Source: Dethiobacter alkaliphilus
GTDB taxonomy: Bacteria; Bacillota; Dethiobacteria; DTU022; UBA8154
Assembly (NCBI GenBank): GCA_016841605.1
Contig: JAENYV010000001.1
Location: forward strand, 165,553-229,552
Direction of reading: 5' to 3'
Length of the DNA: 64,000 bases
The position numbers and the translations under genes are program-made. Under the pieces are notes generated by a model. That model ran no database searches, was not told the DNA's origin, and saw only the letters and a list, made by a program, of their open reading frames with translations. Of this stretch, positions 16,214 to 52,785 are shown piece by piece. Each line of letters starts with the position of its first letter. Positions within the stretch are counted from its first letter, which is position 1.

Positions 16214-16235
16214 AGAGAGCTCAAATAAAATTTAT

Positions 16236-18076: not shown

Positions 18077-18115
18077 CGTATCAACTTGACGTATTGCCTG
18101 CGAAGGAGTTTTTTT

Positions 18116-31661: not shown

Positions 31662-32828
31662 ATGGTTAAAAATTTTTCCAATGAATTTAAAATAGCTCTC
31701 CAGCTGGAAGGGGAAAAGTCTCTTTCCGGAAATGACCTTTTTACTCTCTTAGAAAATATCATGCTTTCCGGTTCGATCAGCAGTGCAGCGGCGCGGATGG
31801 GTGCCTCTTACCGCTATTGCTGGGGGCTGATCCAGGGGGCGGAAAAAACTCTGGGTCTTACATTGGTAGATAAGCAGGTAGGCGGGGTAGCCGGTGGGGG
31901 AACTTCACTGACACCTCAGGGAAAAGAGTTGCTTGAGCAGTATAAGGCTTTTAAACAGGAAGTTGACAGTCAGTTAAAACACTTCCTGGCCCGGACCGGT
32001 AGTACGCCCTCTCAAGATGTTTTTGTCTCAGCCGGACAGCCCGAAAAAGCGGATGAGAGGACTGCTGTGCGGCACCTCTTACTGGCCAGTACTATGGAAG
32101 CAGTGGAAACCGGGCTGATGGATCTTTTGGAAGAGGCTTTTTTCCATACCAGCAGTATCCTGGTCAGGCATATCTCCATCGGCAGCGGACGAGCTTTGCA
32201 GATTGCCAGGGAAGGCCGCGTCGATGTGGTGCTTTCTCATGCTCCGGAACTGGAGAAGTCCTTTATGGACGAGGGCTGGGGAGTAGAAATGATCCCCATC
32301 ATGGCCAATGATTTTGTTATTGCCGGCCCTCTATCCGACCCGGTGGGGGTATCTGAACTGTCCGGTGCGGTAGAGGCTTTCAGAAAGATCGCTTCCTCCC
32401 AGGTGCCCTTTATTAGCCGCGGCGACAGTTCGGGGACCCACCAGCGGGAAAAGGAAATTTGGAAACAGGCGGGGATAATTCCCGAAGGACAGTGGTATAC
32501 CAAATCTTCGGGAATGGTGGGAAATCTGGGAGCCTTACATCTGGCCAGGGAAAAAGAGGGCTATACTCTTGTTGACCGGGCGACCTTTCTTATTTCCCGT
32601 GAGGAAAAAATGATTATTTTTCCTCCTGGAGAAAAAGCAAATGATCCGGCCTGGACCCTGGAAAATATTTTTGTCCTAACCATAGTCAACCCGGAGCGTG
32701 TTCCCGGAGTCAAACTCGCTGATGCGCGGCTTTTTGCCCGCTGGCTGCTGGAAAGGGAAGGGCAGGAGCTTATTTCCTCTTTCGGCCGTGAAACTTTTGG
32801 AACCCCTCTTTTTTCCAGAGTTACCTGA
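31662..32828 (+). CDS. ModE-type winged-helix regulator fused to a tungstate/anion PBP-like domain
   Basis: The N-terminus LLENIMLSGSISSAAARMGASYRYCWGLIQGAEKTLGLTLVDKQVGGVAGGGTSLTPQGKELL is the ModE/LysR-like HTH_1 domain. The C-terminal ~250 aa (..ISRGDSSGTHQREKEIW..) resembles TupA/PBP_like_2 binding proteins. No signal peptide. Confidence 0.7.
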   Translation: MVKNFSNEFKIALQLEGEKSLSGNDLFTLLENIMLSGSISSAAARMGASYRYCWGLIQGAEKTLGLTLVDKQVGGVAGGGTSLTPQGKELLEQYKAFKQEVDSQLKHFLARTGSTPSQDVFVSAGQPEKADERTAVRHLLLASTMEAVETGLMDLLEEAFFHTSSILVRHISIGSGRALQIAREGRVDVVLSHAPELEKSFMDEGWGVEMIPIMANDFVIAGPLSDPVGVSELSGAVEAFRKIASSQVPFISRGDSSGTHQREKEIWKQAGIIPEGQWYTKSSGMVGNLGALHLAREKEGYTLVDRATFLISREEKMIIFPPGEKANDPAWTLENIFVLTIVNPERVPGVKLADARLFARWLLEREGQELISSFGRETFGTPLFSRVT

Positions 32829-32902
32829 TCCGCCTTATTAGGCCGTGCGGATTTTTTTGTAACCGCTATGCAATTTAATGCATATCCGATGACTTGATAA
32901 TA

Positions 32903-32931
32903 TTGACACCCATTTCTTTTTTAAATATAAT
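32903..32931 (+). promoter_or_regulatory. Consensus sigma-A promoter (TTGACA-17 nt-TATAAT) ahead of the 33096 operon
   Basis: TTGACA at 32903-32908, an exactly 17-nt spacer, and TATAAT at 32926-32931. This leaves a ~160-nt leader before the TTG start at 33096. Confidence 0.65.
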
Positions 32932-33095
32932 AGCACATGGAAGGTTCATCGCGGTGGACACTACTTGAAGGAGATGAAACAAACAGAAAAAAGAAAAATT
33001 AAGGGGCAGGCTGAAATTCTATCTTTTTGTACCGGTATATGCTGTCGTTATGTCAAAATAGGCATAATGCCTGCTTAATAAAGGAGGAGGAGACA

Positions 33096-34253
33096 TTGAA
33101 AAAGTTTATCCAATTACTACTTATTGCAGTAATGATTTTATCAATCTTTATGGGAACCTGGGGTTGTACGGCCCAGCCGGAGGAAACTGCCCCGGCGACG
33201 TCCGGTGAGGAGATATCGGCAACTCCTGAGGAGACTACACCCGCGACACGGGAGGTAGTGGACCTCGCGGAGAGAACCGTGACCGTTCCTGCGGAACCAA
33301 AGAAAGTAGCAACAATGCAGGGCCCAACGTATGAGATGGTTTTTATGCTGGGAGCCAAAGACCGGATAGGTCTTGTCAGGGATGACCATCCAACTGCTTA
33401 TCCTCTCGCCCTGTTGACCAATCCTGACCTTGCGAACTATCCGACCATTGCCGGTGTCGGGCCCCAGAGCCCGGTTAATGTGGAAGAATTTATTAATAAA
33501 GGGGTTGACCTGGTTATCTACTGGAACATTGAACAGGAACTCACGAAGTTTGATAATGCCGGCATCCCCGCGCTTGTGATAAACTGGTCGACTTTTCAGC
33601 CGACTAATATTGAGGAAGCTCTTATGGACTCCAAGAAACAGATTTCATTCCTTGCGGACGTGCTGGGCGGCAAGGCGCCCGAGCGCTATGCAGATTGGGA
33701 AAGCTATCTTGACGAGACCGTTGAATTTATCCGGTCCCGTACGGCACAAATTCCGGAAGATGAACGCCCTGTTGTCTACTGGGGCAATAGTTGGGGTCCC
33801 AATATCCTTTCCACATGGCCTCTTACGCCGAAACAATTTGAAGTGGAACTTTGCGGCGGCAAGCTTGTCAGCGTAGAAAAGGGCGGCCAGTTTCCGGAGA
33901 CAACCAAAGAACAGTTGCTCGCCTGGGAGCCTGAAGTAATTATTGTTGATAATCACGGAGGGAGTCCGGAACAAGTTATTGAAGAGCTTAAGAGCAGCGC
34001 AGACTGGGCTTCATTGCCCGCGGTCAAGAATGACCGTCTCTATCGCATACCTGCCGGCGTCTTCTTCCTGGATAAAGGAACCAGCCGTACTGTCTATTAC
34101 TACTGGCTGGCAAAACAACTGCATCCCGATCTGTTCGAAGATGTTGACTTGATTAAGGAATTAAAGTACTACTTCAAGACTTTCTATGATTATGAGCTGA
34201 CCACGGAGGAGGGCGAAAAAGTGCTCGCGGGCTGGGCGGAAACAAGAAAATAA
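33096..34253 (+). CDS. ABC transporter substrate-binding lipoprotein, FecB/BtuF (cluster A/type III) family
   Basis: TTG start 6 nt after AAGGAGGAGGAG, in frame with the listed 33027. Signal peptide plus Cys (MGTWGCTAQ) and an E/T/P-rich linker. The Peripla_BP_2-like body contains PEVIIVDN. Confidence 0.75.
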   Translation: MKKFIQLLLIAVMILSIFMGTWGCTAQPEETAPATSGEEISATPEETTPATREVVDLAERTVTVPAEPKKVATMQGPTYEMVFMLGAKDRIGLVRDDHPTAYPLALLTNPDLANYPTIAGVGPQSPVNVEEFINKGVDLVIYWNIEQELTKFDNAGIPALVINWSTFQPTNIEEALMDSKKQISFLADVLGGKAPERYADWESYLDETVEFIRSRTAQIPEDERPVVYWGNSWGPNILSTWPLTPKQFEVELCGGKLVSVEKGGQFPETTKEQLLAWEPEVIIVDNHGGSPEQVIEELKSSADWASLPAVKNDRLYRIPAGVFFLDKGTSRTVYYYWLAKQLHPDLFEDVDLIKELKYYFKTFYDYELTTEEGEKVLAGWAETRK

Positions 34254-34277
34254 TCGGATAAAATCGGAGGGAAGGTC

Positions 34278-35366
34278 ATGCGCACTACAACGAATACGAT
34301 AAAGCCAACGCCGGTCCAAAAACAGAAGAACCTGAACGAACAAACGGAGACGGAGAAACTTTCCTGCACTAAAATGGCATTGCTCATCGGCCTTCCCCTG
34401 CTTTTCTTCTTTATTTCTCTATTTTTGGGTCGTCACTTCATAGACCCGCTTACCGTTTTAAAGATCCTGGGGCAAAAGTTGCTCTCCTTACCTCTAGAGA
34501 CGACATGGACCGATACCATGGAAACGGTTGTCCTGCGCATCAGAATGCCCCGTGCCATCATGGCGGGTGCGGTCGGTGCCGGTCTTTCCATTTCCGGCGC
34601 CGCGTTTCAGGGGATGTTCCATAATCCTTTGGTGAGCCCCTTTGTCCTAGGCGTTTCTTCCGGAGCCGGCTTTGGCGCTGCACTGGCTATAGTTATGGAG
34701 GGCTCCATGCTGATGATTCAGCTGTTGGCATTTTTATTCGGTATAATCGCCGTCACCATCACCTATTGTACAAGCCGTATCTACAAAACAACCCCCATTT
34801 TGATGCTCGTCCTCTCCGGTATTGTTGTCTCCGCGCTCTTTCAGTCTCTGCTTTCTTTGCTCAAGTATACGGCAGATACGGAAGACAAGCTTCCTGCCAT
34901 TGTCTTCTGGTTAATGGGGAGTATGGGCAGTGTTAGCCTGGAGAATTTGCTCCCGGCTGTTGCCTCAATTGCCGCGGGCTGTCTTGGTCTGCTTCTTATC
35001 CGCTGGCGTTTCAACGTACTCTCTATGGGGGACCAGGAAGCCAGGTCTATGGGGATGAATACGGAATTGCTCAAGGGTATTATTATCGTCTGTACCACCA
35101 TTATCTCTTCCGTAGTAGTTGCTTTTTGCGGTATTATCGGCTGGGTGGGGCTGGTTATTCCCCACTTATGCCGTATGCTGGTAGGTCCCGATCACCGCGT
35201 GCTCATGCCCACTACTCTCTGTGTGGGAGCTGCCTATCTGATTTTTGTTGACAATATAGCCCGCATCATATCGCCGGCCGAGGTGCCTCTGGGTATTCTG
35301 ACCGCGCTGGTGGGCGCCCCGTTTTTTATGATTATGCTCAGGAAGACGAGAGGAGGCTGGGGATAA
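34278..35366 (+). CDS. FecCD/BtuC-family iron-chelate/corrinoid-type ABC permease
   Basis: A polytopic 362-aa protein. RMPRAIMAGAVGAGLSISGAAFQG and GILTALVGAPFFMIML are hallmark FecCD segments. Confidence 0.85.
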   Translation: MRTTTNTIKPTPVQKQKNLNEQTETEKLSCTKMALLIGLPLLFFFISLFLGRHFIDPLTVLKILGQKLLSLPLETTWTDTMETVVLRIRMPRAIMAGAVGAGLSISGAAFQGMFHNPLVSPFVLGVSSGAGFGAALAIVMEGSMLMIQLLAFLFGIIAVTITYCTSRIYKTTPILMLVLSGIVVSALFQSLLSLLKYTADTEDKLPAIVFWLMGSMGSVSLENLLPAVASIAAGCLGLLLIRWRFNVLSMGDQEARSMGMNTELLKGIIIVCTTIISSVVVAFCGIIGWVGLVIPHLCRMLVGPDHRVLMPTTLCVGAAYLIFVDNIARIISPAEVPLGILTALVGAPFFMIMLRKTRGGWG

Positions 35367-36184
35367 TGACGGCAAAGGTATCGGTTAGCTCTGCCTGCTT
35401 CAGCTATGGTGAGAAGGAAGTATGGAGGGATATCAATCTGAACGTGGAAAAAGGGGAAACCATCTGCCTGCTTGGTCCAAACGGCTGTGGTAAAACCACC
35501 CTTCTCAACTGCATACACGGGGACCTTGCCTTAAAAAGCGGAGATATCTATATTGACGGGCGCAATATCAAAACAATGGCGGTTACGGAGATTGCACGCA
35601 GCGTGGGTTACGTCTTTCAGGAGCACAGAGCGCCGTTTCCGTACAGTTCTCTTGAAGTGGTGAGAATGGGGCGTGCTCCTCATCTGGGTCTTTTCCAGGC
35701 TCCCTCCCGCGATGATACGGAGCTGGCTAGAAGCATCATGGAGGAGATGGGTATCGGTTACCTTGCGGCAAAACGCTATACCAACATATCGGGCGGGGAA
35801 CGTCAGCTTGTGCTTATCGCGCGGACGCTTTGTCAGCAACCGGAGATGATTTTGTTTGATGAACCGACCTCTCATCTTGATTTTAAGAACCAGGCACTTG
35901 TTCTCCGGACGATTAGCCGTCTGACCCGGAAAGGTCTCACCATTATTATGACAAGTCATTTTCCCAATCACGCCTGGCTGCTCAGCAGCAGGGTGGCCAT
36001 GATGGACAATAACGGCTTTGTGGCTCTGGGACCGGCGGAAGAGGTTATGACCGAAGAAAACCTGAGTGAAACTTACGGGGTGAGGGTTAAAGTCTACGAG
36101 GCCAAGGACGACCACAAGACTGTCAACTTCTGTACTCCGGAGTTCGTTCCGACGTCAAAGGGAGAGGGAGTCGATGATGATTAA
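35366..36184 (+). CDS. ABC ATP-binding protein (FecE/BtuD-type)
   Basis: Walker A GPNGCGKTT, signature ISGGERQLVLIART and Walker B ILFDEPTSHLD. One-nt overlap with the permease gene. Confidence 0.85.
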   Translation: MTAKVSVSSACFSYGEKEVWRDINLNVEKGETICLLGPNGCGKTTLLNCIHGDLALKSGDIYIDGRNIKTMAVTEIARSVGYVFQEHRAPFPYSSLEVVRMGRAPHLGLFQAPSRDDTELARSIMEEMGIGYLAAKRYTNISGGERQLVLIARTLCQQPEMILFDEPTSHLDFKNQALVLRTISRLTRKGLTIIMTSHFPNHAWLLSSRVAMMDNNGFVALGPAEEVMTEENLSETYGVRVKVYEAKDDHKTVNFCTPEFVPTSKGEGVDDD

Positions 36185-36222
36185 GCACGAAAATTTAAAA
36201 ACCTTTCAGCGGGGGAGATAAG

Positions 36223-36813
36223 ATGAAAAAGACGTTTTATAATCTTCTTCAGCCGATTTATCCTTTGCTTGCGCAGCAGTTTGTGGATGATTACGGTTTG
36301 CAAAGCGGCAGGTGTATTGATATAGGAGCCGGTCCCGGCTTTATCGGTATCGAACTGGCCAAAATAACCGATATGGAAATATATTTTGTCGACACTGTTG
36401 ATGAACAGCTGAAACTGGCGCAGGCTAATTTTTTAGCATCCGGAAGCGAAAATAAAGCGCATTTTATTAATTCCGATGTTCACCAATTGGCCTTTGAAGA
36501 TAACTTTGGCGATTTTATTGTCAGCAGGGGTTCGATCTGGTTTTGGCGGGAGCCCCGGGAAGCGTTAAAGGAAATATACCGTGTCCTTAAACCCGGAGGG
36601 ACAGCCTTAATTGGAGGAGGGCTCGGCAGATACGTTCCTGAAACAATGAGAAAACGCTTGATGGAAGCGAATCAGAAAAGACTGGCTGAGCGAGGAGAAA
36701 AAAGACCTACTTTGGCAGAGTTTCAGTTGATGGTGGAAGAGGCCCATTTACCCCATTATCTCGTTATCAGTGAAGAACCGGGAGTGGGAAGATGGGTCGA
36801 GATCAAGAAGTAA
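36223..36813 (+). CDS. Class I SAM-dependent methyltransferase
   Basis: CIDIGAGPGFIGIELA (motif I), FVDTVDE and LKPGGTALIGGG. Confidence 0.75.
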   Translation: MKKTFYNLLQPIYPLLAQQFVDDYGLQSGRCIDIGAGPGFIGIELAKITDMEIYFVDTVDEQLKLAQANFLASGSENKAHFINSDVHQLAFEDNFGDFIVSRGSIWFWREPREALKEIYRVLKPGGTALIGGGLGRYVPETMRKRLMEANQKRLAERGEKRPTLAEFQLMVEEAHLPHYLVISEEPGVGRWVEIKK

Positions 36814-36866
36814 GCGAAAATGAGTAGAGGAATAAATTTAAAGAAAGAAAGGGGAGTGAGAAACCT

Positions 36867-37757
36867 GTGAACCGCATACTTATTCACACCCCCATCAACA
36901 TCCGGAAAGCCCTTGTAGACGCTTTAAAACAGCATCTTAAGGAATTTAGGAATAAGCACGGGATGGAGATAAGCGTAGAAACTCCCGGCCATAACCATGC
37001 GGAAAACTGGCTGGTTAAGTGTATGGAAGAAGGTTCATTTCCGGATATGGTGATAGCCCATGCTACTGATTTCGCTCCTTTAAACCGGCAGCAGCTTAAA
37101 GAAATATTCCTGCCCGTCGGGGAACGGTTTCCTTTGCGGAGGGAGTTGGATAGGTTCCGGGAAGAAGGAGGGCTTTTAAATCCTGTTTTCCTCGTTCCCC
37201 TTGTCATTGCTTGCAACACCGACATGGTCGATGAGGCAAAGAGGCCGGAAAAATGGGAAGACCTGCTTAAATCTGAATGGGAAAATATGGTAACTTTTCC
37301 TGCCGGTGAAACGCCCATCTCCCAGGCGGTCCTCTCTTTCCTTGCCGACAAGTATCCGGATAAATTCAGAGATTTTTTCCCTTCCATTGTCTTTCAGAGC
37401 TCTGTTCCGGAGGTTCTCCAGTCTATGGGAGCGGGAAATTTCCCCCTGGCTGTGGCCAATATTTCTTTTGCCAAAATGCTCCGTCAGAAACATGTCATAC
37501 CTTTATGGCCCCGGGAAGGAGCCGTGTGTATTCCCCAGGTAGCGGTCTGGTCCCGCAACGCCGATAAAAGACTGCTGGAGCTTGGCGAATTTTTCCGCAG
37601 CCGGCAGTTGCAGGAACTGTTTGCCCACCAGGGCTTTATTCCGGTAATTCCCGAAGTTTCTTTGCCGGCGGAATTGCCCGGTCGGAATTTTTCTTTCACC
37701 TGGGAAGGCTGGGACCCGTTTCTGGAAAGTATCAGGAAAGGTTGTGGCGCCCGGTGA
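36867..37757 (+). CDS. Cytoplasmic periplasmic-binding-protein-like protein (no signal peptide), function unknown
   Basis: GTG start and no hydrophobic N-terminus. Overall resemblance to type II SBPs (..PDMVIAHATDFAP..VPLVIACNTDMV..WEDLL..). Weak call. Confidence 0.4.
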   Translation: MNRILIHTPINIRKALVDALKQHLKEFRNKHGMEISVETPGHNHAENWLVKCMEEGSFPDMVIAHATDFAPLNRQQLKEIFLPVGERFPLRRELDRFREEGGLLNPVFLVPLVIACNTDMVDEAKRPEKWEDLLKSEWENMVTFPAGETPISQAVLSFLADKYPDKFRDFFPSIVFQSSVPEVLQSMGAGNFPLAVANISFAKMLRQKHVIPLWPREGAVCIPQVAVWSRNADKRLLELGEFFRSRQLQELFAHQGFIPVIPEVSLPAELPGRNFSFTWEGWDPFLESIRKGCGAR

Positions 37758-38449
37758 AGTTGCTTACGGTCTGTGGCCCACCTTCTTCAGGGAAAACTTC
37801 CGTTATCACGAAAACCATAGAGATCCTGCGGCAGCAGGGGCTGAACGCGGGAGTGGTTAAATTTGATTGCCTGACAACTCATGATGATGCTTTATACGAA
37901 GAAAAAGGAATCAAAAATAAAGTCGGTCTCTCCGACAGCCTTTGCCCCGATCATTTTCTGGTGAGCAATATTGAGGGGTGTCTTCGCTGGGGCATCGATC
38001 AGGGTTTCGATCTTCTCATCACCGAAAGCGCAGGCCTCTGCAGCCGGTGTTCTCCTCATATTAAGGGTGTTCCGGCCGTGTGCGTGATGGATAACCTGAT
38101 GGGAATCAATACCCCGAAAAAAACCGGCCCCATGCTGAGATTCGCCGATATCGTCGTTATTACTAAAGGAGATATTGTTTCTCAGGCCGAAAGAGAAGTG
38201 TTTGCCTTCAGGATTAAACAGGTAAACCCCCGGGGCAAGATCCTGCATATAAACGGAATTACCGGGCAGGGAACGTTTCAATTGGCCGGGTTGTTTATGG
38301 AGGCCGGGGATATCCGGACCCTTAAAGACAAAGAGCTCCGCTATTCCATGCCTTCGGCCCTTTGTTCCTACTGCCTGGGGGAAAGACAAATCGGAGAAGA
38401 ATTTCAAATGGGAAGCGGAAAAAAAATGGTTTTTGATGAGGTAAAGTGA
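37754..38449 (+). CDS. G3E-like (HypB/UreG/CobW-type) P-loop metallochaperone GTPase candidate
   Basis: The GTG at 37754 overlaps the upstream TGA (GTGA coupling). P-loop CGPPSSGKTS, ITESAGL (like the ExxG Mg site), ITKGD (NKxD-like), and Cys/His-rich CPDH and CSRCSPH. Confidence 0.55.
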   Translation: MKLLTVCGPPSSGKTSVITKTIEILRQQGLNAGVVKFDCLTTHDDALYEEKGIKNKVGLSDSLCPDHFLVSNIEGCLRWGIDQGFDLLITESAGLCSRCSPHIKGVPAVCVMDNLMGINTPKKTGPMLRFADIVVITKGDIVSQAEREVFAFRIKQVNPRGKILHINGITGQGTFQLAGLFMEAGDIRTLKDKELRYSMPSALCSYCLGERQIGEEFQMGSGKKMVFDEVK

Positions 38450-38450
38450 G

Positions 38451-39452
38451 ATGGGTTTACAACAAAATTCTTTCCTGAAAATGGAACAGCTCATAAAAGA
38501 GTATCCGCCGCTGAGAGGTTTTTTAGAGAACATGAACCTGCCTCTTGACAAGATTACGCTTCTCCCGGAAGAGTATTTTCGCTCTCTGGATAGCTTTGTT
38601 TTGGAAGAAACAGGTTTGGGGCGGGTGGAGTTGCAGGATCTTTTCCAGTCTTACCTCCAACACCTGCAAATGATCAAGGAGGATCAGGGAAGCATCGGTT
38701 CCTTGACCCTATGGGGCGGTCAGGATAAAGCGGGAAAGCCGGAAGAGGTGCATCTGCATATACAAAGGGGGGAGATAGTCTGTCTTGTGGGTCCCACCGG
38801 TTCGGGCAAGAGCAGGCTTTTGGAGGATATTGAGTGGCTGGCGCAGCAAGATACCGTCACCCGCAGAAAAGTAACCATCGACGGAAATGTTCCCCGTGAG
38901 GAGTTGAGGTTTTCCTCCGGACGAAAATTGGTCGCGCAGCTGTCGCAGAATATGAATTTTGTGATGGATGTCACTGTTTATGAATTTCTTAAGATGCACG
39001 CTGAAAGCCGCTTGATGAAAAATATAGAAGAACTGGTGGATATCGTGGTTGAACAGGCCAATCTCCTTACCGGGGAAAGTTTTGGGAAGGATGTGCCGGT
39101 CACATCATTGAGCGGCGGGCAGTCACGCGCTTTGATGATTGCCGATACGGCCGCGTTAAGCGTAGCACCGGTCGTTCTCATTGACGAAATTGAGAATGCC
39201 GGTATTAACAGGAGTAAAGCGCTGGAGCTGCTGGTCAGCCGGGATAAGATCGTCTTTATCGCCACCCATGATCCCATTTTGGCTCTCATGGGCCACAAAA
39301 GGCTAGTAATGAAAAACGGGGGAATGATCAAAGTCCTGGAAAGATCGGAAAAAGAACTTGAGGCTCTTGAGAAACTTCAAATGATAGATAGAAAAATTAA
39401 TGAAGCCCGGCAACTACTGAGGGAAGGTGCGAAACTGGAAAGTTTATTTTAG
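38451..39452 (+). CDS. Soluble ABC-type ATPase with ~100-aa N-terminal extension (no cognate permease adjacent)
   Basis: Walker A GPTGSGKSRLL, signature LSGGQSRALMIAD, Walker B VLIDEIENAGI and an H-loop-like ATHD. Confidence 0.65.
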   Translation: MGLQQNSFLKMEQLIKEYPPLRGFLENMNLPLDKITLLPEEYFRSLDSFVLEETGLGRVELQDLFQSYLQHLQMIKEDQGSIGSLTLWGGQDKAGKPEEVHLHIQRGEIVCLVGPTGSGKSRLLEDIEWLAQQDTVTRRKVTIDGNVPREELRFSSGRKLVAQLSQNMNFVMDVTVYEFLKMHAESRLMKNIEELVDIVVEQANLLTGESFGKDVPVTSLSGGQSRALMIADTAALSVAPVVLIDEIENAGINRSKALELLVSRDKIVFIATHDPILALMGHKRLVMKNGGMIKVLERSEKELEALEKLQMIDRKINEARQLLREGAKLESLF

Positions 39453-39545
39453 AGTAGCACATATAAACGGGTTTCATAAATAGGACGCTCGTACGGCGCT
39501 ATTTTTTGCTTTACTTAAATATTTATATTATTGGGAGGTTTTTTA

Positions 39546-40367
39546 GTGAAAAGGTTTTTTGGGATTTGTGTTGCAGTTTTCTTTATTGTCTTGTTGGGGG
39601 TAACAGGCGGTTGCGGGTCCGGGAATACGGATGACGCTTCCGGTGCAGGTCAAGAAATACAGCCGGGCAGCACGGGAGAAGAGCTCCTGGTCTACAGTGG
39701 TGCCGGATTACGCAAACCAATGGAAGAAATTGCGGGAATGTTCCAGGAAGAAACCGGTATTTTGGTTCAATTTTCCTTTGGTGGTTCAGCTCAGTGTGTC
39801 GGTCAGATTCTGACCGTCGATAAGGGGGATGCCTTTTTGCCGGGGGATGTGGTAGAATTAGATAAATTGATTGAAAAAGATAAGATTGACCTGCAAAAAC
39901 CGGTAGTTCTGCATGTCCCTGTGCTCGCTGTTCCTGCGGGTAATCCCGCCGGGATAACCGGAATAGAAGATCTTGCCGAACCGGGAATTAAGGTTGTTTT
40001 GGGCGACCCTGAGGCCAATCCGATCGGTAAACTGGCTGATAAGGCATTGCAAGAGCTTGGCCTTTTTGAAAAAGTGCAGGCTAATGTCGTGGCCCGGGCA
40101 GCTACGGTCAATGAGCTCTTTGCTTACCTTGCCCTGGGACAGGCAGATGTTGCCGTCATTTGGGAAGACAATCTGGTCGGCAATGAAAAGATCGAACTGA
40201 TTCAGACTTCGGATTTTGATAACTTTATCAAAACTATCCCTGTTGTCTCTTTGAAATGCTCGACCAACCCTGAAGCGGCCAACCGGTTTGTTGAGTTCGT
40301 ATCAAGTGAAAAAGCGATGGGCGTTTGGGAGAAATGCGGGTTTAAACCGGCACCGGAGGCCGAGTAG
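39546..40367 (+). CDS. modA: Molybdate/tungstate ABC transporter substrate-binding lipoprotein (ModA family)
   Basis: GTG 8 nt after GGGAGG, in frame with the listed 39531. Lipobox LLGVTGGCGS. The ModA-like body contains LLVYSGAGLRKPMEEI..FSFGGSAQ..GDPEANPIGK..QADVAVIWE. Confidence 0.75.
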   Translation: MKRFFGICVAVFFIVLLGVTGGCGSGNTDDASGAGQEIQPGSTGEELLVYSGAGLRKPMEEIAGMFQEETGILVQFSFGGSAQCVGQILTVDKGDAFLPGDVVELDKLIEKDKIDLQKPVVLHVPVLAVPAGNPAGITGIEDLAEPGIKVVLGDPEANPIGKLADKALQELGLFEKVQANVVARAATVNELFAYLALGQADVAVIWEDNLVGNEKIELIQTSDFDNFIKTIPVVSLKCSTNPEAANRFVEFVSSEKAMGVWEKCGFKPAPEAE

Positions 40368-40370
40368 TAA

Positions 40371-41180
40371 ATGAAGAAACTTTGGTGGAAAGACAAATTT
40401 AACATCTTTATGGCTGCAATAGCTTATCTTACTCTTCTTTTTATTATTGCTGCTATTGGAACGGTAATAATGAAGGGGTTTCCGCATATCGGTAAATCCC
40501 TTGCCACCCCGGAGATTCAATTTGCCGTCAAGCTAAGTCTTTATACTTCGCTGATTTCCACGGTTCTCTGTATTGTAATTGCCATTCCTGTAGCATTTGT
40601 TCTGGCCAGGGTGGATATCCCTTTTAAATCTCTTTTCAATACCCTGTTGGATTTACCCCTGGCCTTGCCGCCGGTGGTATCGGGTGTCTGTCTCCTGCTC
40701 TTTTTTGGGACGACAGCTTTCGGAGCCTGGCTGGAAGAGATCGGTCTCCCCTTTGTCTTCACGATAAAAGGAATCATCATTGCCCAAATTTTTGTCAACC
40801 TTCCTTTTATGATCCGGGTCATGAAGTCGACAATTCTCTCGGTGAGCCCGCGTCTGGAATTTATCGCGCGGACCCTGGGCTGTACTCCGACTCAGGCTTT
40901 CTGGAAGATAACCCTCCCTCTTTCAAGAAACGGAATCATTGCCGGGACTGTCATTACCTGGGCAAGAGCGTTAGGGGAGTTCGGAGCAGCGTTGATGCTG
41001 GCCGGAGCAACACGCTTTCGCACGGAGACTTTGCCGATCTCCCTTTTTCTCAACATGTCGACCGGAGATTTGGAAGAGGCGATGGCAGCAGCAAACCTGT
41101 TGATAATAATATCTATTATCTCTCTCTATATCTTTAACAAATTAGGCGGTGATTTTATCGGAGGGACCCGCGGTGTTTAA
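40371..41180 (+). CDS. modB: Molybdate/tungstate ABC permease (ModB/CysTW family)
   Basis: Six hydrophobic segments. The EAA loop is EFIARTLGCTPTQAFWKITLPLSRNG and ARALGEFGAALMLAG is ModB-typical. Confidence 0.75.
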   Translation: MKKLWWKDKFNIFMAAIAYLTLLFIIAAIGTVIMKGFPHIGKSLATPEIQFAVKLSLYTSLISTVLCIVIAIPVAFVLARVDIPFKSLFNTLLDLPLALPPVVSGVCLLLFFGTTAFGAWLEEIGLPFVFTIKGIIIAQIFVNLPFMIRVMKSTILSVSPRLEFIARTLGCTPTQAFWKITLPLSRNGIIAGTVITWARALGEFGAALMLAGATRFRTETLPISLFLNMSTGDLEEAMAAANLLIIISIISLYIFNKLGGDFIGGTRGV

Positions 41181-41229
41181 ATTTTAGGCGGTTAAGTAAA
41201 ACAAGCATTTTTGTTGGGGAGGACGGCAA

Positions 41230-41958
41230 ATGATAAAACTTGCAGATGTGTCAATAACGCTGGGGGATTTTTCACTGAAGAATGTTCATCTGGAAATAAG
41301 AAAAGGAGAATTCTTTACTATCCTGGGGCCGACGGGTACCGGAAAAACCGTCATCCTGGAGCTGATTGCCGGGTTGTACAGGCCGGACGCCGGTAAAGTG
41401 TTAATTAACGGAGCAGACTCTGAAAACATTCCTCCCGAAAAAAGAGAAATCGGTTTTGTTTATCAGGATTATGCACTTTTTCCCCATCTTAATGTATATA
41501 AAAACATTGCCTTTGGGCCACGACTTCGCAAAATGCCGCCTTCTGCGATTAAAGAAAATGTCCAGGGCCTGGCGGATATGCTGGAAATTACGCACCTGTT
41601 GGCCCGTTTTCCCGGTACTTTGAGCGGTGGTGAGCAGCAGCGTGTTTCACTGGCCAGAGCCCTTATCATGAAACCAAAAATACTTTTAATGGATGAACCG
41701 CTCAGTGCTCTTGATCCCAATACAAAAAGGATGTTATGCGGGGAACTGAAAAGAGTACATGAAAAATACCGCTGTACTGTTGTCCATGTTACCCATGATT
41801 TTAACGAAGCGGCTATGCTGGCGGACCGGATCGGGGTTATACTGAAGGGAAAGGTAAAGCAAGTAGGAGTTCCCAGGGAGGTCTTTGAAAGACCCCGGGA
41901 TCAAGAAGTAAAAAATTTCCTGGGCGTTGAGCCCTTAAAAGCCGTCTATGCACGATAA
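41230..41958 (+). CDS. modC: ABC ATP-binding protein (ModC-like, lacks TOBE domain)
   Basis: Walker A GPTGTGKT, signature LSGGEQQRVSLARA and Walker B LLMDEPLSALD. 242 aa. Confidence 0.75.
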   Translation: MIKLADVSITLGDFSLKNVHLEIRKGEFFTILGPTGTGKTVILELIAGLYRPDAGKVLINGADSENIPPEKREIGFVYQDYALFPHLNVYKNIAFGPRLRKMPPSAIKENVQGLADMLEITHLLARFPGTLSGGEQQRVSLARALIMKPKILLMDEPLSALDPNTKRMLCGELKRVHEKYRCTVVHVTHDFNEAAMLADRIGVILKGKVKQVGVPREVFERPRDQEVKNFLGVEPLKAVYAR

Positions 41959-42028
41959 AGAAACTTTTAGGGAATGAAAGAGGGGCATCCCTGATTTTTA
42001 ATAACTTGAACAGGTTAAAAAGGGGTGA

Positions 42029-43030
42029 GTGAAGATTATGCAGTGCGGGTATTGCGCAAGCAGGTGTGAGCTTGAAGGGAAAAAAGCAGGTGTGTGCGGG
42101 ATGTATGCTGTAGTGGATGGTGAGATCAGAGAGCGTTTTCCCAACACGTGGTCGACATATCATGCGACACATATTGAGCAGATACCGTTTTTCCATGCTT
42201 ATCCGGGCAGCAGAAGTCTTCTTGTGGGAACGGCAGGATGTAATTTTAGCTGCAGCTATTGTATGAATGCCTATGTAGCTAAGGAAAAACCCGAAAACCT
42301 GGATTTGTTTGAACTGACACCGGAAAAGCTGGTCAAAACGGCAAAATTGTCAGGCTGCCATAATATTGTGTTTGGAGTAAATGAGGTAACAGTATCGCTA
42401 CCCTCAGCCATAAATTTGGCCAAAGAGGCCAAATTGCACAACTTGCCCATGGGATGCCTCTCAAATGGATATATGACAGAGGAAGCGGCAGGTTTGCTTG
42501 CTGATCATATGTCATTTTTAAATATCAGTTTAAAATCTCTTTCTCCGGAATTTTACCAAAAATATGCCGGAGTAACCGATATAAAGCCTGTCCTGCGCAA
42601 TATTGAAAAATTTGCCGTAAAGAATCATCTGGAAATTACAACTCCGATAGTTCAGTCTGTCAATGATCATGAGATAGAGGAAATAGCAAAATATATCCGT
42701 GACATTGATCCCAATATACCCTGGCATGTATTCAGACTTCTTCCGGAGTATAAAATGAAGGATTATGCCTATCCTGACATTGAAAAAATAAGCGAGGCTT
42801 TGCAAAAAGCCGGAGAAATACTTCCTTACATCTATTTCAGTAATTTTGTCGGTTCCCCCTGGGTAAGCACAAACTGTCCTGAATGCGGTAAAACCGTCAT
42901 TAATCGTATCAGTCTGGGCACCTGTGGAGCTAAGCTGCTGAATAATCTTTTACTTGAGAACAGGTGTCCCGGCTGCGGTGAAAAAATAGCTGTTTTGGAA
43001 GATTATGAAAAGGGAATTCCGGGAAGGTGA
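42029..43030 (+). CDS. Radical SAM enzyme (PflA/AmmeMemoRadiSam-like activase fold) with N- and C-terminal Cys clusters
   Basis: The CxxxCxxC motif is GTAGCNFSCSYCMN. The N-terminus has CGYCASRC..GVCG and the C-terminus has a zinc-ribbon-like CPECG..(x)..CPGCG. Confidence 0.8.
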   Translation: MKIMQCGYCASRCELEGKKAGVCGMYAVVDGEIRERFPNTWSTYHATHIEQIPFFHAYPGSRSLLVGTAGCNFSCSYCMNAYVAKEKPENLDLFELTPEKLVKTAKLSGCHNIVFGVNEVTVSLPSAINLAKEAKLHNLPMGCLSNGYMTEEAAGLLADHMSFLNISLKSLSPEFYQKYAGVTDIKPVLRNIEKFAVKNHLEITTPIVQSVNDHEIEEIAKYIRDIDPNIPWHVFRLLPEYKMKDYAYPDIEKISEALQKAGEILPYIYFSNFVGSPWVSTNCPECGKTVINRISLGTCGAKLLNNLLLENRCPGCGEKIAVLEDYEKGIPGR

Positions 43031-43034
43031 GAGT

Positions 43035-44177
43035 ATGAGTACAGGAATAATTGATGTCAGGGACTGGCAGGTAACCGTAGATTTCCAAACAGGAAATAAA
43101 ATTGAGCTGGAAAATGAACTTACCGGTATGGTCAGGGAGATTATCCGGAACAACAGATATCCCGGGGATATGGATCTGCGAAGTATTGACTGGGTTACTG
43201 ATATGGGATTAAGGCTGGCGGACAAATACAATCCCGATTTTATGTTCCTCAGCTATGCGCAGCCGTATTTTTTTTCCGCCTATGGGCAGGGTACGCCCGG
43301 GGAATGGGAATCAGTTATGAAAAGAATATTTGACAATGTAGAAAAGTTTCTCGCGGGGACGGACTTTTGGCCTGTTGTGGTCGGACTGGGCCGTATGACC
43401 GATCTGCTGGGAAAAATTGATTTAAGTATTCTTGACTGTTTGGCAATTGCTACCAACTGGTCTTTACAATATGCAGGCCTCTTCAATCCCACGGCGGAGG
43501 ATGTAGAAAAAGTAATGGCCATGCCAAAGCTTGAAAAGGTAATTAGTAAGGAAGATTTTGTTAAGGAGTATGGCGGGAGTGAGAGCTTCATCAAAAGATT
43601 CCCCGACTATCTGCTTACTGCTGAAGAGGGTTATACCTTCAAAGGATTTGAAAGTACCTCCAGAAAAATAAAAAAAATACCTGCTAAAAATATTGAAATA
43701 CCAATATATACTACTTTGGGTGAAGTAAATTCCCTTATTGATATCAGAGGATTAATTGACAGTGTACTGCCGGAGAAAAAAGTAGCCCTGATAGTTATTG
43801 AGGCAATAGGAGCCGGAGACTTCGAGTATGAATATAAGCTATGTTCCAATAAATTAAACTCCTATATATATGAACATATTGAAAGTCAGTACCTGGCCAT
43901 GACAACGGGCAAACACTTTCAGTATCATCCTTTTCCTCCTGTTTTTAAATTTTTCGAAGAAGACAATGAAAATAAAAGTTATCCGTTTTCAGGAAGCCAC
44001 TATACACTTCCACAGGATACCATCGGCAGACGGAAGGATATTAAGAGCGGCGCGGTCGGAACAAGAGGAATGGTAACACATGTGGCAAGTGGAGCGGATA
44101 TTTGTATTGAATGTTATGCCAGACAGCTTTCCAATATGGGAACGCTGGCAGTTATTAATGATACAAAAAATGAATAA
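43035..44177 (+). CDS. Hypothetical protein (380 aa), co-transcribed with the radical SAM gene
   Basis: An ATG after AAGGTGAG, 5 nt past the rSAM stop, is preferred over the listed 43005. No motif recognised by eye. Confidence 0.5.
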   Translation: MSTGIIDVRDWQVTVDFQTGNKIELENELTGMVREIIRNNRYPGDMDLRSIDWVTDMGLRLADKYNPDFMFLSYAQPYFFSAYGQGTPGEWESVMKRIFDNVEKFLAGTDFWPVVVGLGRMTDLLGKIDLSILDCLAIATNWSLQYAGLFNPTAEDVEKVMAMPKLEKVISKEDFVKEYGGSESFIKRFPDYLLTAEEGYTFKGFESTSRKIKKIPAKNIEIPIYTTLGEVNSLIDIRGLIDSVLPEKKVALIVIEAIGAGDFEYEYKLCSNKLNSYIYEHIESQYLAMTTGKHFQYHPFPPVFKFFEEDNENKSYPFSGSHYTLPQDTIGRRKDIKSGAVGTRGMVTHVASGADICIECYARQLSNMGTLAVINDTKNE

Positions 44178-44251: not shown

Positions 44252-44305
44252 TTGACACCCCTTGTTTATACATATATAATTTTCCTGTAGTGGTAAAAAA
44301 GACTA
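44252..44305 (+). promoter_or_regulatory. Conserved promoter/leader element, copy 1 (TTGACA-17-TATAAT + GTAGTGGTAAAAAAGACTA box)
   Basis: TTGACA 44252-57, 17-nt spacer, TATAAT 44275-80, then TTTCCTGTAGTGGTAAAAAAGACTATTTTT. Near-identical elements occur at 52732 and 57257. Confidence 0.7.
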
Positions 44306-44464
44306 TTTTTTTTGCCGCGCAGTTTAAATCCAAGAAGTCCGGTTGTTCGTTTTTTCTATATTATGAAGAAAGTAATATGGGAAAAATATGTTTTGCAAGC
44401 ATTATGCCTGTTCAGGCATAATGCGACAGATTTTGACGTTATAAAGATAAGGGGTGTCTGAATA

Positions 44465-47400
44465 ATGCTGATTACTAACAAAAATTGGTGGTACAGGCTC
44501 CTGCCGTCTATTTTGATTGTGCTCCTGCTTCCCTGTTTCTTCGGCCTGCCGGTACCGGCCGCTGTTCATTCCGAAGGGGGCATTGTTACAATAACAGAGC
44601 CCACCGGGAATATCAAGAATACCGTTAGCAAGGAAACAGCAAGCGGACCAGGCGGTTCGGCCGGCAACAATGTCACTTTTAAGGACCAGGTTCCCGTATT
44701 TTTGAACATGAATAATCCTGACGGTGTAACCGGGAAAGAAGTGTATGCAGGGCATACCTTATCCGGAACCGACGGCGCAACCCCCGCGGATACAGACAGC
44801 CGTGGATTTATCGTGGTAATGGATGAAGCCGGAATACCAGCTCCGGCTTTGACTGCCGATACCAGCGATAACCTGCTTGGGAAGTCCATAGATATTACCT
44901 TTACGGATAATGCCTCCTGGCGGGCGGCGATTAGCGGTGTGCTTGTGGACGGGGTAGCGCTGCAGTCCGGCAAATACACGGTAAGCGCCGGCAAAATCAG
45001 CATTTCCGGCAGCGTTTTCCAGGAATCGAAAGAATACGCCATTGTAGTTGCAGCCAATGGTTACACCGATGCAAGTGTGAGCCAGATAATCGGTACATTG
45101 ATAATTACCGGAGACGGGGTGACGGATCCCCAAATTTTTACGCAGCCCCAACTCGAGGCAATGCAGCCCCAGCTCGAGGAAATGGAGCCCCAGCATGTTG
45201 TTTACAGTTGCATTAATACCTGGCCCAGCAAGAAATGGTATGTGGGAAAAGGGGTCAAATTAGAAGACCTGCTCACCCAGGCGGGACTGAAAGAAACCGC
45301 CGAACAGATTAAATTCAGTTCCGTTGATGGCTACTATATGACGCTTACAGTCAAGGAGTTATTAACGGACAAGCGTTATTGTTTTCCCAATTTCAAAACC
45401 GGTGGCGACGGAGACGGGCATATTCCCGGTGACCCGTCGGGTGCATTCGAGGTGGAGACTATTCTAGGCCTGGTCAGCGCCGAGGGCACCGACGAATCTT
45501 CCTCTATGAACGATACAAATGCCCTGTTGCTGATGCTGGGGCAGCGGTCAGTTACCGAGCAAACAGGCCCCATATTTGTTAAATACGTCAATAAAATTGA
45601 AGTATTGACTGCTGCACCGGCTAAATGGGATAATCCGACGGCGAGCCCGGATAGTGGCATAGTATCTGCGGGGACCATGGTGGAACTGCATAGCAAGTAC
45701 AACGATTTGGATAAGGTCCATTATACGACGGACGGCAGTACTCCAACCATAGAAAGTCCCATGTATAACTGGATTGCCAGCCGGTGGTGGTCCTCGCGAC
45801 AGGATGTTAAGGACGAAATAAACCACCCGATTGAAATTACAAAGAACACCGCTATTAAGGCAATAGTAATCGGTCCAGGCAAAGAGGACAGCGATATTGT
45901 CACCTTCGAGTACCAGGTTCCTGTTATTATGAACACAGATAATCTTGCCGATGCAACCGAAAACGAAGCATACGCAGGTCATACCTTCACAGCGACAGGC
46001 GGAGCTGAGCCATACAGTTTTGCAGTAACTGCCGGGACACTGCCGGCAGGCATGGTTTTAAACGGTGCCGTATTGGAAGGAACGCCGACTGAGAGTGGGA
46101 CATTTCTCTTCACTGTAACCTTAACGGACAGTGCAGATCCCGCGGATGCAGACAGCCATGAGTTTACCCTGGCGGTTGATGAGGCTGAAGTAGTCACGCC
46201 GGTCTTGAATGCCGATACGACGGACAATAAAGTTGGACAGCCGATCGAGCTGACCTTTACGGATGATGGGCTCTGGCGTTCGGCGATTAGCGGTGTGTTT
46301 GTGGACGAAGTGGTGCTTCAGCCGGAGGAATACACGGTAAGCGCCGGTAAGATTAACATAGCTGCCGGAGTCTTCACGTCAGCAAAAGATTACAGTATCG
46401 TAGTGGAAGCCGAAGGGTACGAAGATGCGGCCGTGACGCAGATTATCACTACGTCGTCAACGCCGGAGACTAAGGAACCACCGGTTCTGACCGCCGATAG
46501 TAGCGATAACCTGAAGGGACGGCCGATCGAGCTGACTTTTACGGATGATGGGCTCTGGCGTTCGGCGATTAGCGGTGTGCTGGTGGACGAAGTGGTGCTT
46601 CAGCCGGAGGAATACACGGTAAGCGCCGGTAAGATTAACATAGCTGCCGGAGTCTTCACGTCAGCAAAAGATTACAGTATCGTAGTGGAAGCCGAAGGGT
46701 ACGAAGATGCGGCCGTGACACAGATTATCACTACGTCGTCAGCGCCGGAAACTAAGGAACCACCGGTTTTGACCGCCGATAATAGCGATAACCTGCTTGG
46801 GCAGGGTATAGATATTACCTTTACGGATGATGGCTCCTGGCGTTCGGCGATTCAAGAGGTTAGTGTGGACGGCGCGGTGCTTCAGCCGGAGAAATACACG
46901 GTTAGTGCCGGTAAGATTGCCATTGTTTCCGGCGTTTTCAAGGAATCGAAAGAATACGCCATCGTAGTTAAAGCAGGCGGGTACCCCGATGCAAGTGTGA
47001 GCCAAACGATTAATAGATTGGTAATTACAGGAGCCGGGGTGACTGAATCCAAGATGTTTACGCAGTCCCAGCTCGAAGCAATGTCGCAGCGCCAGTATGT
47101 GTACAGTTGCATCAATACCTGGCCCAGCAAAAAGTGGTATGTGGGAAAAGGGGTCAAATTGAGCGATCTGCTCACACAGGCGGGGATGAAGGGAAACGCC
47201 AAGCTCATTAAATTTTCTGCCGGCGATGGTTATGCCATGACACTTACTGTTCAGGAAATATTAACGGACAAGCGTTATCGTTTTCCTAATTTCAAGACCG
47301 GTGGCGATGGAGACGGGCATATTCCCGGCGATCCGTCGGGCAAAGTAGAGGTGGAAACTATTCTTGGGCTGGTCAGCGCCGAGGGCACGGACGACCCCTC

Positions 47401-52543: not shown

Positions 52544-52731
52544 GTTAAATCCTCCTGTATAGAATTAAGAGACCATCAAGCATTTAACAGACCGGACATT
52601 ACACGAAAGGACTGTTGATTTAGGGGAAGTATACCAAATTTCCTCCTTTATGTAAAGATATGCATATCCATGTGTCTCAATATGATTATATTAAGGGGCA
52701 AAATAAGCTGCAAATCAAAGTAGTTTTTCTG

Positions 52732-52785
52732 TTGACCCTCTTATTTTTATCATATATAATTTTCATGTATTGGTAAAAAAGACTA
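52732..52785 (+). promoter_or_regulatory. Conserved promoter/leader element, copy 2
   Basis: TTGACC 52732-37, 17-nt spacer, TATAAT 52755-60, then TTTCATGTATTGGTAAAAAAGACTAACTTTT. Confidence 0.7.

Follow-up and report, generated by a model that had tools for sequence, protein, structure and literature searches.

A putative molybdenum and tungsten acquisition and handling operon in Dethiobacter alkaliphilus, with two oxyanion importers and two conserved accessory modules

Here, we analyze a 64,000-nucleotide stretch of Dethiobacter alkaliphilus DNA (assembly GCA_016841605.1, contig JAENYV010000001.1, positions 165,553 to 229,552 of the forward strand; hereafter, the window) and focus on a run of 13 genes, g01 to g13, at positions 31662-44177. 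We consider it probable, with considerable room for doubt, that this region is a regulon for the acquisition and handling of molybdenum (Mo) and tungsten (W), made up of a TunR-like regulator, two oxyanion importers, and two conserved accessory modules. Module A (g05 to g08) comprises a methyltransferase, a cytosolic solute-binding protein (SBP), a G3E GTPase, and an ABC ATPase. Module B (g12 and g13) pairs a radical S-adenosylmethionine (SAM) enzyme with a protein of the alkaline phosphatase (AP) fold. The importer part belongs to known kinds, and the accessory modules are widespread yet uncharacterized. We also advance a bolder, two-part proposal, which we hold only tentatively and rate as possible rather than probable: that the G3E GTPase and soluble ABC ATPase, usually with a cytosolic SBP-fold protein, form an unrecognized fifth class of nucleotide-driven metallochaperone machine in anaerobic Bacteria and methanogenic Archaea, here handing Mo or W (or a partner metal) to cofactor synthesis; and that the radical SAM and AP-fold pair is a new step of W/Mo metabolism under riboswitches for the molybdenum or tungsten cofactor (Moco/Tuco), coupled to MolBC-A-type importers.

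Results

Layout and predicted control of the cluster

The 13 open reading frames (ORFs) of 31662-44177 all lie on the + strand, co-directional and with short gaps or overlaps in the ORF list of the window: a regulator gene, a consensus promoter, and then 12 tightly packed genes. The same arrangement had been read from the sequence in a preliminary description of this DNA, whose domain calls agree with the Pfam and NCBIfam results for every gene assigned. Its finer readings also hold: the consensus promoter (a 12/12 sigma-70 match), a GTGA coupling of g06 and g07 (the GTG start codon of g07, at 37754, runs into the TGA of g06, 37755-37757), a novel N-terminal domain on the ABC ATPase (the first ~95 residues of g08 match no Pfam family), and extra Cys clusters in the radical SAM enzyme (at the N and C termini of g12, besides its CNFSCSYC motif). 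The features of the cluster are as follows.

31662-32828, + strand: g01, regulator, a ModE-type winged helix-turn-helix (HTH) fused to a TupA-like PBP_like_2 oxyanion-binding domain (Pfam/NCBIfam)
32867-32884, no strand assigned: candidate operator TATGCA-N6-TGCATA, 18 bp upstream of the -35 box of the operon
32903-32931, + strand: sigma-70 promoter of the 12-gene operon, TTGACA-17-TATAAT
33096-34253, + strand: g02, lipoprotein substrate-binding protein, Peripla_BP_2 (PF01497), MolA-related
34278-35366, + strand: g03, MolB-like type II ABC permease, FecCD family (281 bits)
35366-36184, + strand: g04, ATPase of the type II importer, MolC-like
36223-36813, + strand: g05, class I SAM-dependent methyltransferase-fold protein, Methyltransf_11 (PF08241, 68.6 bits)
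36867-37757, + strand: g06, cytosolic solute-binding-fold protein, SBP_bac_6 (PF13343, 83.7 bits)
37754-38449, + strand: g07, G3E-superfamily P-loop GTPase, 231 aa, PF02492 cobW/HypB/UreG (43.6 bits, cut-off 20.7)
38451-39452, + strand: g08, soluble ABC-type ATPase with a conserved ~95-aa N-terminal domain, obligate partner of the G3E GTPase
39531-41958, + strand: g09 to g11, type I molybdate/tungstate importer with ModA (lipoprotein), ModB, and a ModC/WtpC-like ATPase without TOBE
42029-43030, + strand: g12, radical SAM enzyme, PflA/AmmeMemoRadiSam-like, PF04055 (72 bits, cut-off 29.5)
43035-44177 (ORF from 43005), + strand: g13, 380-aa protein of the AP-superfamily fold, partner of g12

The regulator g01 joins a ModE-like N-terminal HTH (TIGR00637 domain, 70 bits, residues 23-112) to an oxyanion-binding domain (PBP_like_2/TupA-like, residues 136-375; PF12849, 84 bits), the architecture of TunR/ModE-type regulators. 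TunR of Desulfovibrio reportedly combines the same ModE-type HTH and TupA-like domain. By score, g01 stays under the equivalog cut-offs for both ModE (40.8 versus 369) and TupA, its best NCBIfam match (NF041772, 154 bits versus 400). Its homologs adjoin the radical SAM-g13 pair or mod genes in 6 non-redundant metagenome loci.

The palindrome TATGCA-N6-TGCATA is a candidate operator of the TunR-like regulator. It has two matches in the 64-kb window against 0.16 expected; the second copy (52649-52666, one mismatch) lies between modD and the gene at 52907, so that both occur in promoter regions of Mo-linked genes. An Rfam scan returned no family at threshold anywhere in the window, and both Rfam and our own covariance model found the Moco/Tuco riboswitch RF01055 to be absent upstream of the operon.

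A type II importer nearest to MolBC-A, beside a ModABC system

Among solved structures, g02 to g04 lie nearest to the MolBC-A importer of Haemophilus influenzae (HI1470/HI1471/HI1472). The permease g03 is a BtuC/FecCD-fold permease orthologous to MolB: compared with the sequences of the Protein Data Bank (PDB), it matches HI1471/MolB (2nq2_A) at 248 bits (E = 1.3e-72, residues 35-360), ~70 bits above the next best, HmuU (175 bits), with FhuB (139) and BtuC (130) further behind. For g04, the best match in the PDB to an importer with a single nucleotide-binding domain is HI1470/MolC (143.5 bits; HmuV, 116.5), and every NCBIfam equivalog falls under its cut-off. The binding protein g02 is a related cluster-A periplasmic-binding protein; its PDB matches are led by two uncharacterized or putative structural-genomics proteins, 4ovk (97 bits) and 2etv (51.5), followed by HI_1472/MolA (3psa; 48 bits, E = 7.7e-12), which stands ahead of BtuF and IsdE. 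Its most likely start is TTG 33096, behind the strong ribosome-binding site (RBS) AAAGGAGGAGGAG; this start yields the lipoprotein signal MKKFIQLLLIAVMILSIFMGTWGC, with the lipobox read from the sequence.

Experiments have shown that MolBC-A, a type II importer, carries molybdate (PMC4031551). Because the type II genes of the window are nearest to this proven molybdate importer, the operon most likely provides for oxyanion import twice, through a type II and a type I system. Both MolBC-A and the window importer occur beside a ModABC system. Unlike MolBC-A, the window importer has a Gram-positive-type lipoprotein as its distantly related binding protein and is embedded among accessory-enzyme genes, and its relatives stand under Moco/Tuco riboswitches. 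MolBC-A carries free molybdate and tungstate, and the window importer may do the same; the Moco riboswitches ahead of the MolB-like permeases of L086 and L070 (see below) favor this indirectly.

The type I importer passes curated thresholds in two of its subunits. ModA (g09) exceeds TIGR01256 (95.3 bits, cut-off 62.5), and ModB exceeds both TIGR01581 (249, cut-off 210.3) and TIGR02141 (191.2, cut-off 182.6). The third, a ModC-like ATPase of 242 aa, differs from the ModABC/WtpABC/TupABC pattern in having no Pfam match to a TOBE domain and in scoring under the cut-offs for both modC_ABC (201, cut-off 285) and WtpC (331, cut-off 440).

A corrinoid or heme importer was considered for g02 to g04 and rejected as the leading reading: g03 is closer to MolB than to BtuC or HmuU, and neither a cobalamin nor any other riboswitch was found in the window or in the 7 loci that combine Fec-type genes, the methyltransferase, and the triad of SBP, GTPase, and ATPase.

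Moco/Tuco riboswitches precede homologous operons

Rfam confirms RF01055 at four loci homologous to parts of the cluster. In Aceticella autotrophica (L085, CP060096), two Moco-family riboswitches lie 6 kb apart (5881-6024 and 12110-12232); the longer one precedes the type II importer operon, ordered importer-radical SAM-g13-DUF364 (61 bits), and the other, which lacks the P3 stem, precedes modABC (75 bits). A c-di-AMP riboswitch is also present in this locus at 21003-21132. A locus from another member of the Dethiobacteria (L086) has the element (60 bits) before a homologous operon with a MolB-like permease (249 bits), while one from the Syntrophomonadaceae (L091) has it (74 bits, without a P3 stem) before a stand-alone g13. 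In the fourth locus, from the Oscillospiraceae (L070), an element with a P3 stem (64.6 bits) precedes a co-directional operon of NTPase_1, FmdE, methyltransferase, binding protein, MolB-like permease (244 bits to HI1471), ATPase, G3E, ABC, and DUF364. By its position, this predicted riboswitch ties the G3E-ABC block directly to pyranopterin cofactor control. A general Moco-riboswitch link for the triad was rejected, as our Moco covariance model, run over 77 G3E-ABC loci, found L070 only.

Regulski et al. associated Moco elements that lack P3 with the sensing of the tungsten cofactor (PMC2408646). Eubacterium limosum has five Tuco riboswitches, which stand before WOR1, tupABC, focA, and two “Fe ABC-type” transporters, one of which, FetABC1, is up-regulated under W limitation (PMC11725836). 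These transporters are of the same type (type II) as the window importer and stand under pyranopterin-cofactor control; unlike them, the window importer would be controlled by a protein regulator rather than a riboswitch, and the E. limosum authors assign an iron substrate.

DUF364, which recurs at these loci, was long ago associated, through its genomic contexts, with transporters for W, Mo, V, and Fe (PMC2954201). In M. maripaludis, an operon that joins modABC to DUF364 shows cofitness with nifH (bioRxiv 10.1101/2024.03.05.583561). A first activity for DUF364 was described in 2026, in one case: the cyclization of a SAM derivative to an azetidine carboxylate (PMC12930334). The window holds no DUF364, FmdE, or NTPase_1 gene.

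Module A contains a new G3E subfamily paired with an ABC ATPase

Judged by its motifs and model scores, g07 belongs to a new, undescribed G3E subfamily, apart from the known ones. The superfamily signatures GPPSSGKT, ESAG, and TKGD are invariant in 68 sequences, across which the full set of invariant motifs reads GPxxxGKT, C-P-D-H, ExAGLCxRCxP, TKxD, and a C-terminal CxxC. All subfamily models failed: HypB (41.4 versus a cut-off of 121), UreG (24.6 versus 204), CobW-related (20.7 versus 180), Pfam MeaB (15.8 versus 23.1), and the NCBIfam MobB model, whose cut-off lies far above the score. The CxCC motif of COG0523 is absent from g07, and its best PDB matches reach E = 1e-4 only. The subfamily is compact, with 60 representatives at 50% identity (E <= 1e-30) out of 1.84 billion sequences. 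A 231-aa product starting at GTG 37754 is on record in an NCBI-derived collection.

With HypB, UreG, CobW, and MeaB, g07 shares the P-loop, an ExxG Walker B motif with Glu, TKxD, and Cys/His motifs of metal-binding type, among them a UreG-like C-P-(D)-H, which we take to resemble the Ni-binding CPH motif of UreG. Unlike these subfamilies, it has an additional invariant CxRC and the C-terminal CxxC, and its family is always paired with an ABC-type ATPase and usually also with a cytosolic SBP-fold protein. To our knowledge, no ABC-ATPase arrangement is known for HypB, UreG, CobW, or MeaB. The pairing extends to natural G3E::ABC fusion proteins (P0203, 613 aa; P0206, 509 aa). Given such fusions in some organisms, the GTPase and the ATPase act together as one machine. 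The first half of a 2024 Chemical Reviews survey of nucleotide-dependent metallochaperones covers only UreG, HypB, MeaB, and COG0523, with no ABC partnership (PMC11672702).

The ABC ATPase family is large and well conserved over its full length, at 52-65% identity from Bacillota to Deferribacterota; the closest homolog of g08 is encoded by a Syntrophomonadaceae metagenome-assembled genome (64% identity). The first helix-turn of the g08 N-terminal domain (38451-38700) gives a weak, partial hhalign match to DUF1858 (probability 68%, 31 columns). DUF1858 heads the long SBP partners, and this segment may be a docking domain common to both.

A scan with the ABC family, using one genome per species, returned 80 loci, ~75 of which hold a true relative; together with loci from individual look-ups, 77 G3E/ABC loci were surveyed. 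The loci from the scan span Bacillota, Synergistota, Geobacter, Ignavibacteria, Chlorobi, Fusobacteria, Bacteroidales, Spirochaetes, Vibrio, Verrucomicrobia, and many methanogens. The G3E gene is present in 72 and the ABC gene in 74 of these loci, and the two are adjacent in ~70. An SBP_bac_6 protein, mostly a ~410-aa DUF1858 fusion, accompanies them in 51 loci, and a FecCD permease in 17, of which 12 are g03/MolB-like. Less frequent partners are a g05-like methyltransferase (~11 loci), a HypA-like small Zn-ribbon protein (10), a PF04060 Fe-S protein (9), an HTH_17+PBP_like regulator (7), ModA (5), DUF364 (5), NTPase_1 (4), and FmdE (2). Homologs of g05 also adjoin the radical SAM-g13 pair, in 6-7 loci. 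Methanospirillum stamsii (CP176366, L064) carries two G3E-ABC-SBP copies on opposite strands (6078-8868 and 10426-13498), one with the long and the other with the short ABC type; a ModC-like ATPase gene adjoins the short-type copy.

The SBP-fold protein g06 is a rare, short subtype of the DUF1858-SBP_bac_6 partner, with only 12 homolog clusters, and no signal peptide can be read from its sequence. Its AlphaFold2 model (pLDDT 89) resembles FutA1 (TM 0.79), FbpA/HitA (~0.7), and PotD (0.63), and a fold search with the model returned no ModA or TupA in the top 50. Though the fold matches, g06 departs from the periplasmic iron-binding FbpA/FutA proteins, as it lacks both the signal peptide and the Tyr pair of their His/Glu/Tyr/Tyr iron site. 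The FbpA Tyr ligands are replaced, and H7, H65, D68, and N198 are invariant instead, as are N11, N117, and E238 (homolog alignment).

A link of the triad to hybrid-cluster proteins and NO stress, suggested by DUF1858 and by a YgbA_NO neighbor in Calditerrivibrio, was set aside, with only 1 Prismane neighbor among 254 flanking ORFs. A “Sao”/DVU_1556-type system was rejected, as scores remained under the cut-offs (methyltransferase, 34 versus 155; SaoA, 173 versus 360).

Module B is a conserved pair of a radical SAM enzyme and an AP-fold protein

The product of g12 is a member of the radical SAM superfamily, with a CxxxCxxC motif and the PF04055 domain, and its conserved neighbor is g13. An AmmeMemoRadiSam system was rejected: g12 scores 158.7 on TIGR04337 (cut-off 220), and no AMMECR1 or Memo occurs among the annotated neighbors. 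For g13, the most likely start codon is ATG 43035 (MSTGIID...), in agreement with its homologs. The protein has the AP/NPP core fold and no Pfam or NCBIfam match; its homologs form only 66 clusters in 5.8 billion proteins, all unnamed and none with a Pfam match. Conserved residues are D55, E266, R354, H359, D365, and E369, with no clear nucleophile motif.

The contexts of g13, from five look-ups and a metagenome scan of 80 loci, were analyzed with phmmer and a covariance model. This gave 60 non-redundant loci, 40 of which have at least 8 kb of sequence and are referred to here as well covered. In 33 of the 40, a radical SAM homolog lies immediately upstream of g13; loci without one are chiefly those in which a stand-alone g13 directly follows a riboswitch. 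Fec-type genes, nearly all g03-like, occur in 24/40 and a Moco/Tuco riboswitch in 12/40. Counting a riboswitch, ModA/B, a g01 homolog, or an HTH_17+PBP_like regulator as a direct Mo/W marker, 19/40 loci have such a marker, and 28/40 have either a direct marker or FmdE/DUF364.

Anaerobic sulfatase-maturating enzymes (anSMEs) offer a parallel: they too are radical SAM enzymes encoded directly beside an AP-superfamily protein, the sulfatase, as a conserved pair. Unlike anSME, g12 is PflA/AmmeMemoRadiSam-like rather than of SPASM type, and g13 lacks the C/S-x-P-x-R motif.

The modules are separable

L088, a metagenome contig with 95% identity to the window, shares its regulator, importer, modABC, radical SAM gene, g13, and surface gene. 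It has lost 2.8 kb corresponding to window positions 36459-39291 (junction 5664-5665): the 3' part of the methyltransferase gene, all of the SBP and G3E genes, and the ABC gene up to a point within its 3' end. It also has ~340 extra bases between modB and modC, and its SLH protein is 927 aa long, compared with 1700 aa in the window. The G3E-ABC pair is found in 0 of the 40 well-covered g13 loci; therefore, the window is the only sampled locus that combines both modules.

Neighboring genes and the surface locus

Upstream of the cluster, the genes are unrelated to Mo/W and include histidine kinases and a response regulator-HD protein, along with three of the features listed here.

111-6246, left end of the window: StiP/PELOTA_1/YceG_bac gene group (tellurite-like stress-resistance cluster)
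15092-19174: FbpABC/AfuABC-like importer, with a secreted SBP_bac_6 protein, a fused double permease, and an ATPase
20277-23546, - strand: class II lanthipeptide synthetase, DUF4135 + LANC_like, LanM-type, unrelated to the cluster
44252-44280, + strand: second perfect consensus promoter, for the SLH surface-protein gene 44465-49567
49621-50205; 50262-51344; 55644-57122; and residues 851-933 of the 44465-49567 product: Oxidored_molyb-like domain carriers
51698-52543, - strand: ModD, the quinolinate-phosphoribosyltransferase-like protein of mod operons, outside the cluster; TIGR01334, 218 bits (cut-off 179)

The importer at 15092-19174 is a separate candidate iron(III) uptake system. Downstream of the cluster, four secreted, membrane, or surface proteins carry Oxidored_molyb-like domains (sulfite-oxidase/YedY fold, 24-35 bits); one of these domains is fused to a PF09819 “ABC_cobalt” membrane domain, and another sits in the 1700-aa SLH protein. 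Extracytoplasmic molybdopterin-fold domains thus adjoin the Mo/W uptake operon.

The leaders of the operon and the surface genes have sequence elements in common. A hairpin with a perfect 11-bp stem, GCATTATGCCT-GTTC-AGGCATAATGC, lies in the surface-gene leader (44399-44424), and the 11-mer AGGCATAATGC recurs at 33060 in the importer leader, within the 13-bp palindrome AGGCATAATGCCT (33060-33072) just upstream of the g02 RBS. The SLH-gene promoter and the first ~40 nt of its leader (44252-44310) are nearly duplicated at 52732-52790, upstream of a second surface-protein gene at 52907 (Big_2/Fn3_assoc), with the strings CATATATAATTTTC and TGGTAAAAAAGACTA in common. This near-duplication suggests co-regulated or duplicated expression signals. 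The preliminary description had proposed a functional link between the cluster and this surface locus. ModD, the four Oxidored_molyb-like proteins, and the leader and operator-like motifs lend such a link some support; the surface genes, however, have a consensus promoter of their own, and any co-regulation is putative.

Discussion

We propose that the TunR-like regulator encoded just upstream would control the 12-gene operon and that the MolBC-A-like type II and ModABC/Wtp-like type I importers would take up oxyanions. By analogy with HypB and UreG, the G3E-ABC machine may couple nucleotide hydrolysis to the transfer of a metal species from the cytosolic SBP to a client, by way of its invariant Cys/His sites. 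The radical SAM/AP-fold pair may be enzymes that act on the oxyanion once imported, or on a pterin intermediate that bears phosphate; for instance, the AP-fold protein could itself be modified by the radical SAM enzyme, in the way that sulfatases are by anSME. We infer the control of the operon, the substrates of the importers, and every biochemical step of modules A and B from the patterns described above.

That the cluster is a functional Mo/W unit beyond plain ModABC, as the preliminary description had suggested, is supported by the MolB-like permease and by the Moco/Tuco riboswitches that precede the same modules elsewhere. That description would have been weakened by middle genes lacking synteny with mod or fec genes, or assigned by profile models to a well-known pathway. 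Neither was found, because these genes are syntenic with Fec-type genes (a MolB-like permease beside G3E-ABC in 12/77 loci, any FecCD permease in 17/77) and with mod genes or Mo-type regulators in ~10 loci, and no Pfam or NCBIfam model files them under a known pathway.

Several observations weigh against a Mo/W regulon. The binding protein g02 is only distantly related to MolA, and its best PDB match, 4ovk, is uncharacterized; the cytosolic SBP g06 resembles ferric-binding proteins rather than ModA or TupA; and the E. limosum authors take their Tuco-controlled transporters to be iron importers (PMC11725836). The window itself has neither a riboswitch nor a verified operator, and we infer control by the adjacent regulator. 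Among the G3E-ABC loci, ~65/77 have no Mo/W marker and only 1/77 has a Moco riboswitch. Because most of these loci have no such marker, module A may serve another metal. Furthermore, module A is deleted in L088, which is 95% identical and keeps everything else, and the triad occurs together with the radical SAM-g13 pair only in the window, among ~140 sampled loci.

These points bear on three other explanations. The type II importer might take up an iron chelate, with the FbpA-fold SBP, the G3E GTPase, and the ABC ATPase trafficking iron; co-regulation with Mo/W would then reflect the Fe-S-rich nature of Moco/Tuco synthesis and of Mo/W enzymes, in keeping with the published reading of E. limosum FetABC. 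We judge this unlikely, though it deserves to be taken seriously. In E. limosum, “Fe ABC-type” transporters are under Tuco control and cellular iron rises 12-fold on lactate (PMC11725836), the g06 model is closest to FutA1/FbpA/HitA (TM up to 0.79), the best Pfam/NCBIfam matches of g02 to g04 include iron, heme, and B12 families, and FeoA, Rrf2, SufBD, and PF04060 Fe-S proteins occur near some G3E-ABC loci. However, the permeases (g03 and those of L086 and L070) resemble MolB far more than they do heme, siderophore, or B12 permeases, and FetABC1 rises under W limitation, as a W importer would (PMC11725836). Moreover, the iron-ligand Tyr pair of FbpA is not conserved in g06, and stand-alone g13 genes directly follow Tuco-type riboswitches where there is no transporter.

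The preliminary description itself had favored the import of a chelated or cofactor-like species that is processed or inserted by methylation and radical chemistry. In terms of the present assignments, the type II importer would bring in chelated Mo/W or a pterin- or cofactor-like molecule, to be released, remodeled, or inserted by the methyltransferase, the two module B proteins, and the G3E-ABC machine. Type II importers usually transport bulky chelates or cofactors, DUF364, a frequent neighbor, makes a metallophore-type building block in one case (PMC12930334), AP-fold enzymes work on phosphate esters, which Moco precursors bear, and downstream surface proteins carry Oxidored_molyb-like domains of the molybdopterin-binding fold. 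Yet the import of a chelate or cofactor is unsupported, because the nearest characterized importer, MolBC-A, carries free oxyanions. The window has no chelator biosynthesis genes and none for DUF364, FmdE, or NTPase_1; all enzymatic steps of this pathway are conjecture, and the catalytic residues of the AP-fold protein are only putative. We therefore regard it as improbable. Improbable to much the same degree is a composite formed by chance or convenience, in which the G3E-ABC-SBP-methyltransferase block is a general metallochaperone module (for Ni, Co, Zn, or Fe-S) that has no Mo/W role. Most of the 77 G3E-ABC loci are indeed stand-alone, with a small HypA-like Zn-ribbon protein or a PF04060 Fe-S protein as additional partner and no Mo/W marker; the block has been cleanly removed from L088 and never accompanies radical SAM-g13 in the well-covered loci, and its CPDH motif is presumably like the Ni-binding CPH of UreG. 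Against this, the block is embedded in one tightly packed operon with a Mo/W importer on either side, and elsewhere it stands beside MolB-like importers (12 loci) or molybdate-type regulators and ModA (~10 loci) and once behind a Moco riboswitch (L070). A Mo/W regulon is the reading that we prefer.

The acquisition, discrimination, and insertion of Mo and W by anaerobes are poorly understood, especially in sulfidic environments and in the gut, where tungsten enzymes are by now recognized as important. Our analysis suggests that the “iron-type” ABC importers, which are widespread behind Moco/Tuco riboswitches, may be Mo/W importers of the MolBC-A-like kind and that the conserved radical SAM and AP-fold pair may be a missing player in Mo/W metabolism. 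With ~140 related loci surveyed, the compact, highly conserved G3E subfamily and its ABC ATPase partner are now testable, and the natural deletion variant L088, which is without the G3E block, offers a ready comparison. The accessory modules thus provide experimental handles on how anaerobes handle W and Mo.

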